Positions 1,597-12,747 of a DNA stretch of 64,000 nucleotides are shown piece by piece. The stretch is from an uncultured Methanosarcinaceae archaeon. GTDB taxonomy: Archaea; Halobacteriota; Methanosarcinia; Methanosarcinales; Methanosarcinaceae. Position 1 is the stretch's first letter. Each line of letters begins with the position of its first letter. The notes under the pieces were generated by a model. That model had not been told where the DNA came from. It saw only the letters and a program-made list of their open reading frames with translations, and did no database searches. The translations under genes and the position numbers were made by a program. The DNA lies in assembly GCA_963847185.1 (NCBI GenBank), contig CAWJYV010000010.1, positions 320,001 to 384,000 on the forward strand. Direction: 5' to 3'.

Positions 1597-3084
1597 ATGG
1601 ACTACTTTAAAGAGAGGGAAGCTGAAATTAACGGCTCTCTTCTTGCAGTACTGTCTGGGGAAAATATCCTCTTCCTCGGACCGCCTGGAACGGCAAAAAC
1701 CCAACTTGCAAAAAACATCTGTCAATCTATCGAAGGAGGGAACTTCTTTAACTACCTCCTTACCAGTTTTTCAACTCCTGAGGAGATCTTTGGTCCCCTT
1801 TCCTTAAAAGCCCTGGAAGAAGACGAATTCCGCCGAAAAATAGACGGCTGCCTTCCTACTGCTCACATTGCTTTACTTGATGAGATCTTTAAAGCGAGCA
1901 GTGCAATTTTAAACAGTATGCTTACAATTCTGAATGAGCATAAGTACCATAATGGGAGAGAAATTGTAGATGTACCTCTCCTTTCAGTTTTCGGAGCATC
2001 AAATGAACTTCCTGACGAAGACGAGAGCCTCGAAGCCCTTTATGACCGCTTCTTGTTCAGATATAGACTCTCTTACATCCAGGATGATGAAAACTTCCGA
2101 AATCTCCTTTTCCGAAATCCTGAGGATTTTGCTCCCTGTACACAAATTTCGGTCTTCGAAATAGAAGAACTCCGCAAGAGTGCAAAATCCATTCCTGTTG
2201 ACCCTGATGTTGAAGTAATAATAACTGAGCTTCGAAAAGTCCTTCAGATTCAGGAAATCGAAATTTCGGATAGGCGCTGGAAAAAAGTTATACAGGTCCT
2301 GAAAGTTGCAGCCTGCAGCAGCGGGTGCTCGGCTGTTGATCGGACAGCAGCTCTTTTACTCCAGCATATGCTCTGGAACCTTCCTGAGGAAAGGGAAACC
2401 ATAAGAAAAAGGGTCTTCGAGCATGTGGTCTCAGGAGGGGTCAGTACCGAAAAACTCTACCTTGATGCTGAGGATCTGAAAAATGCCCTGTATACTGCCC
2501 TGAATAACGAACTCCCGGCAGAAGTCACCTGTGATAGCTGCGGGGAAAAATTCAGGCTCAGGCAGGAAATAGAAGCTCACCATACTGCCTATCCGAACCA
2601 TAGTTATACTCTTAAAAGAGAAGGGGACTCAAGAATCTATACCTACGAGAACCTTGTGAAAGAAATTGATTCTTTTTATAAAAATTTGGAGAAGCAAAGC
2701 AACTTATCCCCGACCCAGAGAGAGATTTTCAAAAAAGAATTAGATGCCCTGGCTGGTAGGGCAAAAAATATAAAACAAAGGCTTGAGGAAGAAAGGGGAC
2801 TTTTCAGGAACCTGATGGAAGCAAATATCTGGCTTTCGACCCTGGACAGGAACGAAGCCCTGCTTTTGCACGATACAAAAAATGTGGAACTGGCCGAAAT
2901 CGAGGTTCTAATTAAAGAAATAAAAACTACTCTTGGAATTCAGGACAGCGGACCTTATACTACAAAACAGCATTCTTCAGGCTTGCAGCCTGCAAGACTG
3001 GAAGCAAATATAGAGGAACGTGATTCGGACAGCAACACAGGCGGATTTATAAGAGGGCTTGGATCGAGGTTCAAGTTTAGATGA
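1597..3084 (+). CDS. MoxR/RavA-type AAA+ ATPase
   Basis: Walker A GPPGTAKT, Walker B LLDEIFKASSAILN, ASNELP, ALYDRF and ISDRRW are RavA-subfamily motifs. The frame is open back to a CTG at 1561, a possible true start. Confidence 0.92.
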   Translation: MDYFKEREAEINGSLLAVLSGENILFLGPPGTAKTQLAKNICQSIEGGNFFNYLLTSFSTPEEIFGPLSLKALEEDEFRRKIDGCLPTAHIALLDEIFKASSAILNSMLTILNEHKYHNGREIVDVPLLSVFGASNELPDEDESLEALYDRFLFRYRLSYIQDDENFRNLLFRNPEDFAPCTQISVFEIEELRKSAKSIPVDPDVEVIITELRKVLQIQEIEISDRRWKKVIQVLKVAACSSGCSAVDRTAALLLQHMLWNLPEERETIRKRVFEHVVSGGVSTEKLYLDAEDLKNALYTALNNELPAEVTCDSCGEKFRLRQEIEAHHTAYPNHSYTLKREGDSRIYTYENLVKEIDSFYKNLEKQSNLSPTQREIFKKELDALAGRAKNIKQRLEEERGLFRNLMEANIWLSTLDRNEALLLHDTKNVELAEIEVLIKEIKTTLGIQDSGPYTTKQHSSGLQPARLEANIEERDSDSNTGGFIRGLGSRFKFR

Positions 3085-3295
3085 TAGGGAAAGCCTGGGT
3101 TAAAATTTTAAAAAAAATAAGTTTATCTTAAGTAAGGTTTCATGAGACAGAGGTGTTGATACGAAAGATTCGGCCAGTTTTCTAAACAGCCTGAACAGTA
3201 CCTCCTCTGAATCTCACTCTTTTTTTTCCAGAAGCAGGTCGTGGCATGAATCTCTTACGGTTCAGAAGCAAACCGCCTTACTGCTGGAAAGGGAA

Positions 3296-4813
3296 TTGAG
3301 AAGTACTATCGCTTTTCCCAGGATTCTCCCCCGACCCCTGCGTGAGAAAATTGCTGAGATAATCGCATTTGAAATCCTTTTCGGGCAGCCTTACGAAATA
3401 AAGGACCCTGAAAAGTTTATAAGGCATTTTGGGGGCTTCTATCCTATTTATCTGGCTTTGAAAAACTCTAAACCCTGGCCCAAACTTCGAAAGATCTCAA
3501 AAAAGAGCCAGAAAGCTGGAATTGCCTGCCTGAAGCTCCTTCTCCCTCTGATATATTCCCTGATGGAACGTATTGCAGCAGAAGGAGATTCTGAACCAGG
3601 TGCAGGAACATTTGAGGAACTGAATGAAGAGATGAAAGCTATTTTGAGAGAATTTGAAAAAATCCTCAAAGACACTCTTCTCTTATGGGAAAACAGTAAT
3701 TCAAACGAATTATCCGGGAAATTTCAGGATCTTAATCGAAATCCAGAGCAATCTGATATTTACGGAAATGTCATTAGCCTTATGCAGATGGAAGGCTACC
3801 AGGCCTTTCTGGAGGGCAAGATGGAAGAGCTGTACCTGCGGATGCAGGAGTTCATTTCGGAAATGGTAGAGAACCTGGACCTTTTTGATACTCTTGCTCT
3901 TCTATTCCCAGAAAGAAACTGGACTTATTCCATAAAGGAGCTTAAAAAAGAACCTTTCTACCTGCAGCTTAAGACGCTGAAAAATTACTCCTCCTTTTTT
4001 GAAAAAAGTCCTGATCTAAGAAAAATTGTTGATTTTATCGGCAGGAGAGAGTTTGACCCTCCAGCTAACCGCATACGCTTCTCTCCTTTCGGAAAAAACA
4101 GGATACAAACAGTTCGTTTCTCAGATTCCATCAATAACCTCCTTCCTATAGAAGCCGAAAAACTCCTGAATCCGTCACTAAAAAGGAAGTTCTATGCAGA
4201 TATGCATGAGGGAAAACTCCTGAGCTACCAGCTTCTTGGAAAACACTATACGGGCCCTCCGCGAATAAAGCCAAGAGGCCCTATGATTGTGCTTGTTGAT
4301 ACCTCAGGCTCTATGCATGGAGCTCCCCAGACCCTTGCCAAGGCTGCAGTGCTTGCTATGGCAAAAAGAATGCTCTTCCAGCAAAGAGACATGAAAGTTA
4401 TCCTTTTCGCCTCTACAAGCCAGCACCTGGAAATAGAACTCAGCAGCAGAAAAAAGATGCCTGAAAAATTTCTGAACTTCCTTCTCTACACCTTTGGAGG
4501 AGGAACGGACTTCAATACTGCCCTTGCCTCAGGCCTCAAATCCCTTAAAGAAAAGGACTTCCAGGGTGCAGACCTGCTTTTCATTACAGACGGAAAGTCC
4601 CAAGTTTCTGACGAGCTTGTGCTCGCCCGCTGGGAAGAGGCAAAAAAGAAATACAACGCAAAGGTTTACTCGCTAATAGTTGGGAGTAGCGGAGCAGGCG
4701 GGCTTTCGGAAATTTCGGATTATACCTATTTTGTGGAAATGGAACTTGATTCTGAAGGCACTGGCGGGTTTGTGAGACTAATAGAGCTGGATAAGAAAGA
4801 ACAGGGTGTCTAA
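3296..4813 (+). CDS. VWA-domain protein (ViaA-like partner of RavA)
   Basis: MIDAS motif VDTSGSM, GGGTDF and FITDG. Follows the AAA ATPase. The start is uncertain because the frame stays open about 150 nt further upstream without an ATG. Confidence 0.9.
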   Translation: MRSTIAFPRILPRPLREKIAEIIAFEILFGQPYEIKDPEKFIRHFGGFYPIYLALKNSKPWPKLRKISKKSQKAGIACLKLLLPLIYSLMERIAAEGDSEPGAGTFEELNEEMKAILREFEKILKDTLLLWENSNSNELSGKFQDLNRNPEQSDIYGNVISLMQMEGYQAFLEGKMEELYLRMQEFISEMVENLDLFDTLALLFPERNWTYSIKELKKEPFYLQLKTLKNYSSFFEKSPDLRKIVDFIGRREFDPPANRIRFSPFGKNRIQTVRFSDSINNLLPIEAEKLLNPSLKRKFYADMHEGKLLSYQLLGKHYTGPPRIKPRGPMIVLVDTSGSMHGAPQTLAKAAVLAMAKRMLFQQRDMKVILFASTSQHLEIELSSRKKMPEKFLNFLLYTFGGGTDFNTALASGLKSLKEKDFQGADLLFITDGKSQVSDELVLARWEEAKKKYNAKVYSLIVGSSGAGGLSEISDYTYFVEMELDSEGTGGFVRLIELDKKEQGV

Positions 4814-8013: not shown

Positions 8014-9336
8014 TCAATCCTTAGCCAGTGAGACTTCCTGGGAATCATCATGACTTACAGGTTCCTTTTTGAATTCAGGGCCTTTATCCGTGCTCTTGAG
8101 AAACCTGAAGTAACCAAGCCCGATTAAAAAGATCGGATATATAATTTTCCAGGAAAATCCGGAAGCCAGAAAGCTAAGAGACAGAAGAGAAAGAATCGAG
8201 AAAACCCACCTTTGCCAGCCAGATTCTGTTTTCCAGTAAGCAATTATGATAAACCCGCATAGGAAAATAAAATTCTGGTTTACAAGTAGCATCATAGAAG
8301 TAAGAGGAAACTTGAAGACGTAGCTCCCCGCTATCAGGAAAACAGACAGTCCATAGAGGCCCACAAGGCTGTATACGGGAATATCTTTTTTTGAGAGTTT
8401 TCCGAAGATTGCAGGGAAAACACCTGTCCTGCCCCCGGCATAGATCAGTCGGCTTGCCGTAAAATTCCAGGAACATGCATTTGCTGCAAGCACCACAACT
8501 ATAAACCATACAAGAAAGTTTCCTCCAGGCGTGAGCAGGACAAGACCTGAAAGACCCGCAGCACCCTTAAGAGAAACACCTGCAGTACTGGCTCCGACGC
8601 TTATCAGGGCAAGAACAATATAAATTGCAGCTACAAGAGCAAAACTCAGCCAGTAGAGGCGAGGCACGTTTTTTTCCGGATTCTCCATTTCTCCCAGGGA
8701 AAAAGAAAGGTTCTCCCAGCCCAGAAAGGCCCAGAAAAGAAGGGCTGTTACTTCCCAGACCGCACTCGGGCTTACACTTCCTGTCCCATTCAGGGCTTCT
8801 CTGGCAATTTCCAGGCCTGAACCGAGGAAATCAAGGTTAAAAATAATAAGCAGGCTAATTAGCAGGAAAAGTATCGTAAGGGCCATGTAATTGATCAGGG
8901 TAATAGCTCTTGTTCCAAACAGGTTTGAGAGAAACATGAGGGTTACAAGAAAGATTGCAAAAAGAGCAACTCCCGATTCTGAGACCGGAAAAAGCTGCCG
9001 AACATATTCGCTGCCAATGAGAGCAACAGCAGGAAGCCCGAAAAGGAAAGATCCACCTACAAGGTAAGAGACCGAATATTTTCCCCAGGGCCCGACAGCT
9101 TCCTCGGCATAGCCTGCAAGGCCGGCAGTCGAAGGGAATTTCAGGCCGAGGCGTGAGCAGATCTGAACTCTTGGAATGGTTACAAGAGCTATAAGGAGCC
9201 ATCCAATTATTGCTTCATATGCATTTCCAGCGCCAAGAGCCAGGCCAGGCAGTGCAAGGATTCCTGTGCCTATAAGCATGCAGATTGCAAGCCCTATGCC
9301 TCGCCTGAGAGTGATTGTTTTTCTTAGTTCGGTCAT
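8014..9336 (-). CDS. APC-family amino acid permease
   Basis: IGTGILALPG, FWAFLGWE...EMENPEKNVPR, about 12 TM segments. Confidence 0.9.
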   Translation of the reverse strand: MTELRKTITLRRGIGLAICMLIGTGILALPGLALGAGNAYEAIIGWLLIALVTIPRVQICSRLGLKFPSTAGLAGYAEEAVGPWGKYSVSYLVGGSFLFGLPAVALIGSEYVRQLFPVSESGVALFAIFLVTLMFLSNLFGTRAITLINYMALTILFLLISLLIIFNLDFLGSGLEIAREALNGTGSVSPSAVWEVTALLFWAFLGWENLSFSLGEMENPEKNVPRLYWLSFALVAAIYIVLALISVGASTAGVSLKGAAGLSGLVLLTPGGNFLVWFIVVVLAANACSWNFTASRLIYAGGRTGVFPAIFGKLSKKDIPVYSLVGLYGLSVFLIAGSYVFKFPLTSMMLLVNQNFIFLCGFIIIAYWKTESGWQRWVFSILSLLSLSFLASGFSWKIIYPIFLIGLGYFRFLKSTDKGPEFKKEPVSHDDSQEVSLAKD

Positions 9337-9468
9337 CTTAGTTCCTTAAGTTACCAGTAAAACAATTTGTAATATTTATTTGTTCGCAAACAGGTTCCAG
9401 AATCATTAAATGCACCCATTAACCCATTTCTTACTTATTAACTCATTTCTTCCTTTATTCAACGATCT

Positions 9469-9933
9469 TTACCAGGATAACACACCCAGGTACTGCAAAA
9501 TAGCAATAGAAAGTGCAATAAAACTGAGAATGAGGAACACGCCTGAAATCCGAATGTACCTGTATTTAGTATCCACCATTTTCTCGAATTTTTCCTGTGA
9601 GCTGATGGAAGAATTTATATTGACCTCATAACTTTTTCTGAAGAAAATCATCACAGCAAAAATAAGGCTTAACAGTCACAGGACAAGCGGAGCCAGATAT
9701 ATCAGGACAGAATGCCCTTCTGCCAGTTTTATATCGGAAAATGTAATCGCATGAAAGTAAATCCCCTGAAGCAGACTTGTAATGGTAACAAATTGTTTCG
9801 CCGTATCCTCCACAACTGAAATAGATTCCCCGACAATCTTTTCAGCGTTCTTCTTCCAGAAAGGATTGGGCTCGGAAGGAACGAAAGGAATATCTCCCTC
9901 GCCAGCCCCACTCTCAACTTTCCTCTCAGTCAT
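9469..9933 (-). pseudogene. 3-TM membrane protein (PycTM/DUF5706-like layout) broken by one in-frame TGA
   Basis: ORFs 9676-9969 and 9469-9654 share a frame. Reading through the TGA at 9676-9678 gives LAPLVL*LLSLIFAVMIFF, probably TGG(W) to TGA. The ATG at 9933 is 2 nt after the upstream stop. Confidence 0.75.
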
Positions 9934-9935
9934 GT

Positions 9936-10142
9936 TTATTTTATTTCCCATTCGAATCCTTTCCTGCAATTGGGACAGGCAAGGTCTACATATACGTATT
10001 TAGGAGTCTTTCGGCTGGATACTCTCACAACATTGGAAAAACCTAACCTTACTGCAACAGTTTCCCCATCTTCAACAATTTTTTCTATATCAGTACGGTA
10101 TTTGTACTCGCAGTGAGGGCACTTTATAATTTTCGAATTCAT
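9936..10142 (-). CDS. Small zinc-ribbon protein (CPHC...CPNC)
   Basis: Two CPxC knuckles at the termini. ATGA overlap with the upstream gene. Confidence 0.8.
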   Translation of the reverse strand: MNSKIIKCPHCEYKYRTDIEKIVEDGETVAVRLGFSNVVRVSSRKTPKYVYVDLACPNCRKGFEWEIK

Positions 10143-10525
10143 TCTTTAACCAGCCTTTCAAGAATCCTGAGTCCACTGCTATTTTTCTGAGCTTCCTTCA
10201 TTGACTTATTGAAATACTCTCCTAGCTCACCAGAAGATACCCTGTTGAAAATAATTTTTCCAAATTCGATGTGCGGCTCTTCTCTTCCCACTACTTCCCC
10301 TGTTTTCGCTTTCTCTTTTTGCTTCTTTGAATCTTCAGGTACTTGAGTAACCTTTTTCTCTATATCTTGAAGCATCTGAGAGAGCTTCAGGTCTTGCCTG
10401 AGTTCGAAATCGTGACTTGCAACAACATTTCCACCCTCAAGAATGGAAGCACGGTATAGATTTGAAGATGCTTCAGGAGGTCGGGTAAATTGAAAATCGA
10501 GAGAAGAGTACTCCAAAAAAATCAC
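10139..10525 (-). pseudogene. N-terminal remnant of a CHAT (caspase-like) domain protein, internally deleted
   Basis: EFGKIIFNRVSSGELGEYFNKSMKEAQ...GLRI resembles the helical segment that precedes the CHAT LPWE motif. The ORF then ends abruptly (LERLVKE*) with no catalytic His/Cys. Confidence 0.6.
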
Positions 10526-10712
10526 CAGTTACTATTTAGGCATACTCCTTAATAAATTTAAAGAATATGTTATGATAAAAATAATAATAAAGACTTAAAA
10601 AAGGCAAATTTAGGCAGAAATCCTTATTTGAAAATATTAAAACTCAGAAAGAATACATATAAGGTTAGCCAGAAAGGGCAAAGTTATCTACATTTTTTAA
10701 TTAGATTTTAGG

Positions 10713-10804: not shown

Positions 10805-11449
10805 TTAATCTTTCTTCTCCGCACAGATGAGTTCTTCAGCATATGGCAGAGTCTCTTTCATCCAGGTGCAGAAATCTCTCCACTCATCGAGCTTGTGGGA
10901 ACGGCGCTGAAAGTAAATATTCCGGAGTTCGGCATAGTTTGTTATGACTGTCCGTTTCTGCAGGTAAGCGCTGGGGAGGTCCTGGACAAGTTCCCTAAAG
11001 ATTGCTTTCCGGCATGCATTGTCTTCCTCGCTGTCTCCTTCGCAGGATTTGTAGGCTTTAATGAGATCATTGAGATGCTTTATCTGGTCACTTCTGTAAG
11101 GTGTCAGTGTGTCATAAGAGAAGTCGTGAGGAGCCAGATCCCGGCTGGTCAGCTTATGCATTGTAGAGGTTGAATTCTTCTCAGTGAATTTGTAAGTATC
11201 AAACTCCTTCCACCAGTAGAGAGGAGCATTAAGATCAAAACACACCGTAATGAACCTTAAAAACTTGCCGTGTTCATTTCCTGCAAGGGTCAGGCGCTGG
11301 GCCAGATTCAGGTCCTTTTCTCCAAGTTTGCAGTTCCCTGCTTGATCCGGTTCACTGCTGTCCATCAAATGCCAGGAGTTCATAGGGTTCCGCATACCAA
11401 GGATAGCGTAGTAAATATTGTACGTGCCGTGTAATTTCATTTCAATCAT
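10805..11449 (-). CDS. ThyX-like (flavin-dependent thymidylate synthase fold) protein, atypical subfamily
   Basis: GxEHGKFLRF...APLYWWKEFDTYK...NSTSTMHKL...LPSAYLQKRTVITNYAELRNIYFQRRSHKLDEW follows the ThyX motif order but lacks the canonical RHR. Confidence 0.65.
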   Translation of the reverse strand: MIEMKLHGTYNIYYAILGMRNPMNSWHLMDSSEPDQAGNCKLGEKDLNLAQRLTLAGNEHGKFLRFITVCFDLNAPLYWWKEFDTYKFTEKNSTSTMHKLTSRDLAPHDFSYDTLTPYRSDQIKHLNDLIKAYKSCEGDSEEDNACRKAIFRELVQDLPSAYLQKRTVITNYAELRNIYFQRRSHKLDEWRDFCTWMKETLPYAEELICAEKKD

Positions 11450-11936: not shown

Positions 11937-12747
11937 ATGAGTCCTGCAGAGCCCCTTTATATTGGAATTCTTATTCTCACAGGCACTTTTACAGGCATTA
12001 TTTCAGGATTTCTGGGCATAGGAGGAGGATTTATTATGACTCCTGTCCAGTACTGGCTTTTGCAGGAAACAGGACTGGAGCCTGACCTGGCTATAAGGGT
12101 TGCTCTCGGGACAAGCCTTTTTGTAGTGTTGCTAAATGCCACAAGTGCCACTTTAAAGTATCAGCAAAAAAGAGCAGTCCTCTGGAGGCAGGCAACAATT
12201 ATGGGAGTTTTCGGGCTGATTTCCAGCTTAATAGGAGCGGAAGTCTCATCCCGCCTTTCGGCCTCGACACTAAGCACTATTTTTGGATTTGTTGTCATCC
12301 TTGGAGCGCTCAAGACTTATATGATATCTTCTGAGGTCGAAAAAAATAAAATCAGCTCCAGCCCGGTACCTTATATTCTTGTCGGCATTTCTATAGGCTT
12401 TTTTTCAGGTCTTCTCGGGATAGGGGGAGGAGTACTTGGGATTCCACTCATGCTGATTTTTCTGCATTTTGATCTGCGAAAAGCCATAGGAACCTCGGTT
12501 GCCGTAATAATTTTCACTTCTTGGAGGATCTATAGGTTATATTATTAATGGCTGGGGACAGCCAGGTCTCCCTCCTTATTCTCTAGGATATATCAATCTC
12601 GTTGACTGGATTTTGCTTGCAGTTCCAGGGTTCCTTGCGGCGAGAAAAGGAGCGGAAATTGCCTATCTGGTAAACCCAGAACATTTGAAACATCTTTTTG
12701 TACTGATGATGATCTATGTAGGGATAGAAATGATAGGAATTACTTGA
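11937..12747 (+). pseudogene. TauE/SafE (TSUP) family permease, frameshifted near 12520
   Basis: Repeated GFLGIGGG / GLLGIGGG motifs. Homology continues in another frame (GGSIGYIING...YSLGYINL) to a TGA at 12747. Possibly an assembly error. Confidence 0.85.

Follow-up and report, generated by a model that had tools for sequence, protein, structure and literature searches.

A 64,000-nucleotide stretch of DNA from an uncultured Methanosarcinaceae archaeon (contig CAWJYV010000010.1, positions 320,001–384,000; hereafter the window) was found to contain, at 9469–10525, a decayed copy of a conserved operon of three genes, which encode a large sensor-protease, a Zn-ribbon protein, and a three-helix membrane protein. 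In the window, an internal deletion has reduced the first gene (gene 1) to a stump, a nonsense codon interrupts the third (gene 3), and the second (gene 2) alone is intact; the preliminary description of this DNA had supposed such a loss of both the sensor and the effector. The trio is dead in the genome of the window, because a second Zn-ribbon or membrane gene was not found elsewhere in it; three other CHAT genes are present in this genome. Judging from sequence and from analogy with characterized systems, we consider that the intact operon is probably an abortive-infection system that acts by CHAT-triggered membrane killing.

The three genes lie on the minus strand and are closely coupled. 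The stop codon of gene 1 (10139–10525, 128 codons) and the start codon of gene 2 (9936–10142, 68 aa) share the four bases ATGA at 10139–10142, and a gap of only 2 nt (9934–9935) precedes the ATG at 9933 of gene 3 (9469–9933, 154 codons). The gene 1 product ends in ...GLRILERLVKE*, the gene 2 product carries CPHC...CPNC, and gene 3 has a single in-frame TGA. All these features, from which the preliminary description had started, are present in the sequence, and a chance arrangement can be discounted because many genomes repeat the three genes in one order. None of the three window products reached a Pfam cut-off, and searches against Pfam, NCBIfam, and PADLOC gave nothing above the cut-offs for the small proteins of the window and of G023, a genome of the same genus with an intact syntenic copy.

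Gene 1 is the remnant of a large sensor-protease gene

Gene 1 is what remains of a gene for a sensor-protease composed of a CHAT domain, an NB-ARC-type P-loop NTPase, and a TPR array. Residues 1–124 of its product match the N-termini of open frames of 775–1538 aa in seven of 41 related genomes, all of the same genus; its homologs are thus not naturally about 128 aa long. The intact syntenic gene of G023 encodes a protein of 1121 aa that ends in ...AELERLVNE*; it overlaps a 69-aa Zn-ribbon gene by ATGA, and the membrane gene follows. In a blastn comparison, nucleotides 1–363 of gene 1 aligned without gaps to nucleotides 1–363 of the G023 gene (79.6% identity), and nucleotides 364–387 corresponded to nucleotides 3343–3366, the final 24 nt of the G023 gene. 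Gene 1 consists of the ancestral N-terminal codons 1–121 joined at 10162/10163 to the last seven codons and the stop codon, as the result of a single in-frame loss of 2979 nt (993 codons) with microhomology of at most 1 nt at the junction. The colinearity with G023 bears out the earlier suggestion that the ancestor was a large CHAT-NTPase-TPR gene whose N-terminus now adjoins its last codons, and G023 itself supplies the intact gene that had been envisaged, with the same N-terminus, a LERL-like tail, and the same two genes next to it.

The deletion took away the CHAT core along with the P-loop NTPase region and the TPR array, and Pfam did not detect CHAT (PF12770) in the 128-aa product. In an AlphaFold2 (AF2) model of residues 1–392 of the G023 ortholog, the surviving part is predicted to form a three-strand sheet with helices that pack on the protease core, and the onset of the deletion coincides with the first core strand of CHAT. 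The ratio of nonsynonymous to synonymous substitution rates (dN/dS) of the remnant against seven orthologs was 0.19–0.31, and that of intact pairs was 0.14–0.33. These values are similar; hence the deletion happened recently on the scale of species divergence, or else dN/dS is not fine enough a measure to register relaxation.

Nonsense codon in gene 3 and order of the losses

Gene 3 remains colinear with its intact orthologs over 152 aa (74% identity to the G023 copy), and its only lesion is the TGA at 9676–9678 (minus strand), which replaces the TGG of a conserved tryptophan at codon 86. Tryptophan occupies this position in 19 of the 20 distinct copies from the genus that cover the codon, the stop being confined to the window copy, and W86 is invariant in the alignment of 11 membrane-protein sequences (A1). 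The TGA falls within the second hydrophobic helix of the gene 3 product. Gene 2 shows no comparable damage: C8, C11, C56, and C59 are invariant across the 28 sequences of the Zn-ribbon alignment (A4), giving the two knuckles that characterize a Zn-ribbon, and the gene 2 product retains these four cysteines together with the near-invariant R32, D53, P57, and F63. Generic Pfam Zn-ribbon families match gene 2 only below their cut-offs.

Contigs from four public runs (X1, X2, X4, and X5) that are at least 88% alike were compared with the window over 9300–10700. At plus-strand position 9676, all covering contigs (four in X1, four in X2, one in X4, and three in X5) have C, which gives TGG. The deletion junction is bridged by X2 record 13 (848 nt spanning 9666–10517, with 53 differences) and by X4 record 23 (571 nt spanning 9939–10508), the latter from an RNA library that may contain DNA. 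A contig of X5 departs from the window at 10163, and its loose end translates onward as the CHAT core. Hence the deleted allele (X2 and X4 contigs) and an undeleted CHAT (X5 contig) both occur in nature. A lineage about 6% divergent from the window has the same deletion with TGG at codon 86, and thus the deletion is older than the nonsense mutation. In gene 3 of this deletion-sharing relative, seen in X2 record 13 and in one contig of X1, a separate deletion of 1 nt lies at 9806. The locus accordingly presents a dated decay series, with the sensor lost to the deletion before the effector was struck independently in two sister lineages.

Two technical explanations were rejected. We reject an assembly artefact at the junction because contigs of X2 and X4, which are independent public runs, bridge it, and we reject recoding or read-through of the TGA because relatives have TGG. 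Separately, single contigs of X4 and X5 have 1-nt insertions at a G run near 9762–9764, which may be errors.

We also weighed whether the genes of the window are still alive, the 128-aa product and the Zn-ribbon protein having taken on a new role and the TGA being read through or the two halves of gene 3 acting separately. The deletion is in frame and keeps the ATGA coupling to gene 2, the dN/dS of the remnant is low, and the RNA-library contig includes gene 2 along with the remnant in a relative, albeit possibly as DNA. Against these points, one third of all deletions are in frame by chance, and the low dN/dS mostly reflects the time before the deletion. Moreover, the remnant has neither protease, NTPase, nor TPR, the tryptophan codon is kept in 19 of 20 copies from the genus and in all covering metagenome contigs, the stop lies inside a hydrophobic helix, and the sister lineage that shares the deletion has damaged gene 3 separately. 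Survival of function is therefore highly improbable in our view, and the value of the window copy lies in its record of decay alone, with no function beyond it.

Domain composition of the intact large protein

The intact large protein is about 1050–1550 aa in length and comprises an N-terminal beta/alpha subdomain, a CHAT domain, a STAND NTPase of the NB-ARC/NACHT type, and a TPR array. According to Pfam, the G023 ortholog carries TPR repeats and CHAT (PF12770; 122.9 bits, E 2.2e-35); its Walker A motif reads GFGGIGKT. The same combination of CHAT, a P-loop NTPase family (NB-ARC, NACHT, or AAA_16), and TPR was present in all five distant large open reading frames (ORFs). Above-cut-off NTPase calls were NB-ARC in four and NACHT in two of these five orthologs, and the one at locus L082 had AAA_16 only.

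The AF2 model covering residues 1–392 of the G023 protein (predicted local distance difference test, pLDDT, 85.6) matched known CHAT structures in Foldseek, namely SAVED-CHAT (8tl0, E 1e-13) and Craspase Csx29 (7zoq, E 2.6e-9), and also separase. The catalytic dyad, His243 and Cys287, is near-invariant in alignment A6. From these sequence and model features, the intact orthologs are expected to be active proteases. At locus L059, a second copy in a Methanosarcinaceae bin, the 1349-aa large gene is uninterrupted and the catalytic cysteine of CHAT is replaced by tyrosine.

The operon in archaea and bacteria

Relatives of the membrane gene are patchily distributed, occurring in 19 of 59 genomes of the genus. 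Scanning one genome per species with the membrane-protein alignment, followed by frame analysis, gave 34 loci, of which 17 were intact, six were broken, and 11 were cut by contig ends. The order of the large gene, the Zn-ribbon gene, and the membrane gene was the same in every intact locus (uninterrupted in 17 of 34). Intact trios were found in Methanosarcina, Methanoperedens, Methanotrichaceae, the ANME-1 and ANME-2 groups of anaerobic methanotrophic archaea (ANME), Zixiibacteriota, and Chloroflexia, among others. CHAT is part of the large gene wherever the upstream region of an archaeal locus is intact, and the two small genes thus do co-occur with CHAT genes elsewhere, an association whose absence would have spoken against the preliminary description. 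Tandem and multiple copies of the trio occur among the loci. In the sole named-genome copy checked, that of Methanosarcina sp. T3, the gene is annotated as a hypothetical protein.

When the loci of the genus genomes were added, 12 of the 19 Methanosarcinaceae-type loci with context were intact and seven were decayed, and seven of the 11 other loci with sufficient context were intact. Besides the window, decay was seen in G043 (large gene split), G054, G073 (N-terminus of the large gene broken, membrane gene interrupted by a stop), the second copy of G074 (large gene truncated), G006, and G005 (L018/L073, G005:C5). The G006 locus is rearranged, and near its Zn-ribbon/membrane pair the large gene survives only as pseudogene scraps. 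In G005, the large gene lies in three pieces or frames, the Zn-ribbon gene has an insertion, and the membrane gene has a frameshift. The insertion in the Zn-ribbon gene of G005 measures about 680 nt, at about 6720–7400 of L018, and contains a 131-aa ORF. A larger, independent deletion was observed in G051 (L038, G051:C13:155777-155956), where one open frame runs across the two ends of the operon and joins residues from about 4 to 43 of the large gene to the last 35 or so residues of the membrane protein. At least six further lesions of varied kinds are present at related loci of the genus, a series useful for studying the loss of costly immune genes. By this comparison, the locus in the window is established as a decayed representative of an operon whose three genes are conserved as a set.

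Pairwise distances of the three proteins correlated over 17 loci (r 0.81–0.92), a level reached by none of 2000 permutations. The co-variation shows that the trio descended together as a unit; it does not show binding. In a tree of 29 membrane proteins, Methanosarcinaceae formed one supported clade and Zixiibacteriota together with Ignavibacteriota another. The membrane protein of L072, on a contig binned as Omnitrophota, fell among the ANME and Methanoperedens sequences at a fork that is left open, and its position may be due to a transfer or to a binning error.

Relation of the membrane protein to PycTM

The membrane protein is about 150 aa long. The AF2 model of the G023 copy (pLDDT 89.2) predicts a disordered acidic N-terminal tail followed by three long helices at residues 24–65, 73–97, and 109–151. 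PycTM (PF18967) was the commonest Pfam family among 52 members examined, matching nine of them at E ≤ 1, and the PycTM models of PADLOC matched 17 of 52 and 11 of 52 at E ≤ 0.01. An hhalign comparison of alignment A2 with a small six-sequence PycTM alignment gave a probability of 85.6% (E 5.6e-6) over 132 columns, with the conserved lysine aligned, and among neighbor clusters in the ESM Atlas 11–16% of the members bear the PycTM label. In structure searches with the AF2 model, Foldseek found nothing in the PDB at E ≤ 1e-3, the top entry being NINJ1 (9bia_A, E 0.27), and VIA-align returned only generic helical bundles with a best Z of 9.8, below the level that is meaningful for long helices.

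From the sequence comparisons, the membrane protein is read as a probable remote homolog of PycTM rather than as a member of the family. The PycTM-like assignment in the preliminary description holds to the extent of this remote homology, toward which hhalign, PADLOC, Pfam, and the ESM Atlas, as four partly independent lines, all point without any one being decisive; it does not extend to a Pfam match above the cut-off or to the presence of a Pycsar cyclase in the window. No cyclase adjoins the trio in the window according to Pfam searches of the neighbors (cyclase models were not run over all loci), and the upstream genes in related loci are the CHAT-STAND-TPR gene and the Zn-ribbon gene, not a cyclase.

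Bacterial loci of the wider family

A profile of the membrane protein retrieved 364 representative clusters at E ≤ 1e-3 among 1.84 billion, mostly of 145–170 aa. A metagenome scan with an eight-sequence bacterial alignment (A5) gave 80 loci of the bacterial subgroup. A small ORF with two cysteine knuckles ends just 5' of the membrane gene in 58 of the 69 loci that have at least 300 nt of upstream sequence, and a CHAT protein is encoded upstream in 23 of the 28 loci with at least 2.5 kb (22 by tblastn and one, the TPR-CHAT protein of L142, by Pfam). Once near-identical contigs were collapsed, tblastn alone recovered CHAT in 17 of 23 clusters. At L143 (4886–5965) and L155, two paralogous membrane genes stand in tandem after a single Zn-ribbon gene.

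The exceptions without CHAT are diverse. L172 encodes a TIR-NB-ARC-TPR protein with an nSTAND1-like ATPase and has no Zn-ribbon gene; in this TIR variant, which also includes L165, the Zn-ribbon gene is lacking and the TIR domain resembles ThsB (PADLOC, E 1.7e-58). The neighbor is a trypsin-like peptidase in L166, a dCTP-deaminase-like protein in L163, and a primase-like protein in L169, and L160 is broken. Because L172 pairs the membrane protein with a TIR-NB-ARC-TPR protein in the absence of a Zn-ribbon, proteolysis is not the sole trigger across the family, and the TIR variant together with the loci lacking CHAT suggests that the membrane protein may answer to more than one kind of trigger. 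The bacterial Zn-ribbons gave few database matches. None of 11 from the metagenome loci matched a Pfam family at E ≤ 1e-4, among three additional copies from bacterial genome loci that of L077 matched DUF7575 and DUF7836 only below the cut-offs, and PADLOC searches of the bacterial Zn-ribbons and membrane proteins gave only a weak match to PDC-M14A (E 1e-4).

These exceptions raise the question of whether the Zn-ribbon and membrane proteins form a self-contained pair, such as a toxin and its antidote or a membrane stress device, that rides beside varied sensors and involves no proteolysis by CHAT. The pair occurs without an adjoining CHAT gene in L163, L166, and L169, and in G006 it persists beside mere scraps of the large gene; the membrane gene accompanies a TIR-STAND protein in L172, and the Zn-ribbon gene is the sole intact gene of the locus in the window. 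Other observations point the other way. A CHAT gene accompanies 23 of the 28 metagenome loci with context and all archaeal loci whose upstream region is intact, the stop codon of the large gene overlaps the start codon of the Zn-ribbon gene, the distances of all three proteins co-vary, and the neighbor in L166 is a trypsin-like peptidase, and therefore a protease is again present. We regard a self-contained pair as quite improbable.

Genomic neighborhood

According to Pfam, the genes near the trio in the window encode an amino-acid permease, a SET-domain protein, TauE, and enolase. The flanks are syntenic with those of relatives, with the amino-acid permease gene downstream and an ORF of 214–225 aa upstream. 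In the window this upstream ORF, at 10805–11449 (minus strand), encodes 214 aa and has syntenic counterparts in G023 (L013, 1887–2564) and G022 (L015, 3199–3876); it had no Pfam match at E ≤ 1e-8 and no PADLOC match. The TauE/SafE-type gene at 11937–12747 (plus strand) is split between one ORF of 203 aa and a second of 44 aa behind it; it may be broken too. At 1597–4810 (plus strand), 5 kb from the trio, Pfam identified a bpMoxR gene ('MoxR domain in the MoxR-vWA-beta-propeller ternary systems', E 1e-53) and an adjoining vWA-domain gene, a pair that is itself a candidate conflict system.

Proposed function

For the intact operon we propose the following mechanism, because in the tested caspase-STAND systems the small partners are turned into pore formers by cleavage, as described in passages of PMC12642450. 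The TPR array would sense a protein derived from an invader or from stress, and oligomerization driven by the NTPase would bring CHAT domains together and switch proteolysis on. The CHAT protease would then cleave either the Zn-ribbon protein, which may inhibit the membrane protein in trans or act as its adaptor, or the acidic tail at the N-terminus of the membrane protein itself. Once freed, the membrane protein would damage the cytoplasmic membrane, and the cell would die or arrest before the invader spreads. Frequent pseudogenisation fits a system that is costly, self-toxic, and dispensable. The behavior of the locus in populations is defense-like, with patchiness, multiple copies, many independent lesions, and neighbors of the dCTP-deaminase-like, trypsin-like, and TIR-STAND kinds.

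A broader proposal, which we put forward tentatively and with somewhat more doubt than conviction, is that the Zn-ribbon and PycTM-like proteins constitute an effector module that has gone unrecognized in the NLR-type immunity of prokaryotes. As an eleventh protease-associated kind, it would have membrane damage switched on by CHAT and the Zn-ribbon rather than by a cyclic pyrimidine. The pair is widespread in methanogenic and methane-oxidizing archaea and occurs in several bacterial phyla.

Several observations weigh against the assignment of the trio to CHAT-triggered abortive infection. Five of the 28 metagenome loci with context have no CHAT protein. The archaeal (A4) and bacterial (A7) Zn-ribbons scored only 17.8% in hhalign, with one knuckle matched and the knuckle order possibly swapped, and homology between them was not detected. 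The best member of the membrane-protein family scored 24.1 bits, short of the PycTM gathering cut-off of 27.2, and the copies of the window and G023 gave no PycTM match. The dN/dS of the gene 1 remnant is no higher than that of intact pairs, and the 128-aa product may retain a function. Some of the broken copies in metagenome bins may be assembly errors. Finally, the Methanosarcina locus stands amid ordinary genes with no obvious defense island, the MoxR-vWA pair being 5 kb off.

The last of these points bears on a different purpose for the intact trio, namely that it is not antiviral and serves instead as a module of regulated cell death or kin conflict in aggregate-forming prokaryotes, triggered by internal stress or by contact with non-self. 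In passages of two earlier works, NLR-like architectures, including 'all-in-one' proteins of the CHAT-NOD-repeat type, are described as abundant in Methanosarcina and as tied to a multicellular habit (bioRxiv 10.1101/2020.01.06.895854; PMC7159879). The housekeeping surroundings of the Methanosarcina locus agree with this, as does the result for viral contigs, among which a scan with A1 found no relative of the membrane protein. On the other hand, the patchiness, copy-number variation, and decay are as in known defense genes, some relatives adjoin dCTP-deaminase-like and TIR-STAND genes, and comparable STAND proteins sense phage proteins when tested, according to passages of PMC13581612 and PMC12642450. 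We consider a purpose other than defense against viruses to be unlikely. The two purposes are compatible with each other and not mutually exclusive.

If the action proposed for the trio, CHAT-triggered membrane killing, is correct, the operon would provide a new output module for protease-coupled NLR-like immunity, and the membrane-effector fold of PycTM would be one that can be driven by proteolysis or a protein partner instead of a nucleotide signal. The operon would also be among the few candidate abortive-infection systems centered on methanogens and ANME archaea. To our knowledge, the defense of these archaea against viruses has so far received little experimental study.

Comparison with known systems

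A description of the trio was not found in the literature searched, supplementary tables aside, and an earlier description is possible. The trio does not appear in the passages considered of PMC7159879, PMC8195603, PMC13581612, PMC13069673, and bioRxiv 10.1101/2020.01.06.895854, the term 'DUF5706' is not mentioned in the literature searched, and PADLOC-DB 2.0.0 contains no model for the trio beyond the distant PycTM matches. The statement in the preliminary description that no named system has this trio agrees with these searches of the literature, supplements aside, and of PADLOC.

The closest parallels are the protease-coupled STAND/Avs systems, in which a protease-STAND-repeat sensor is encoded beside small membrane-acting proteins: EACC1 with the caspase-like KrAvs12, Pepco with Avs4, and bacterial gasdermin with CHAT or caspase proteases (passages of PMC12642450). 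The logic is shared, in that the sensor switches a protease on and the protease licenses a killer, and the small non-enzymatic partners of caspase- or CHAT-STAND proteins are described there as pore formers unleashed on cleavage. The trio differs in having two small downstream genes, one for a Zn-ribbon and one for an integral three-helix protein that probably belongs to the PycTM superfamily. Passages of the same source list ten protease-associated effector families (MBL, alpha/beta-hydrolase, Pepco, EACC1, PCaspase, bGSDM, CATASP, MPE, CalpT, and Csx30), none of which corresponds by name to a Zn-ribbon and PycTM-like pair. Among them, CATASP is the small protein of a caspase-dependent ternary system marked by CATRA domains (Burroughs and Aravind 2020), to which PMC8195603 also refers.

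With the Pycsar effector PycTM, the membrane protein appears to share its layout over the whole length: a helix, two hydrophobic helices, a loop, a conserved lysine, and a third hydrophobic helix. In the hhalign comparison, its family is shorter than PycTM by approximately 30 residues in the stretch from the second helix to the lysine helix. PycTM is reportedly activated by cCMP or cUMP (the 2021 work of Tal et al.). The trio, unlike Pycsar, has no adjoining pyrimidine cyclase in the window, and its partners are a protease-NLR and a Zn-ribbon protein. The Liu-DS6 operon brings together the PycTM and PycC of Pycsar and a type IV Thoeris TIR with a caspase-like protein; these are separate systems whose effectors are not cross-activated, and the trio has neither cyclase nor TIR, except for the TIR of the variant L172.

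The CHAT fold is also shared with Craspase, the type III-E CRISPR system in which the TPR-CHAT protein Csx29 cleaves Csx30, and with SAVED-CHAT/PCaspase. As in Craspase, TPR and CHAT are combined in one protein, and a small neighboring protein is the presumed substrate. The trigger of the trio would be a STAND NTPase rather than the RNA-guided Cas7-11 or a SAVED domain responding to cyclic oligonucleotides, and its output would be a membrane protein rather than a sigma-factor circuit. On this comparison, we rate the trio as a variant of the protease-coupled NLR-like systems and the window copy as a pseudogenised instance of it.

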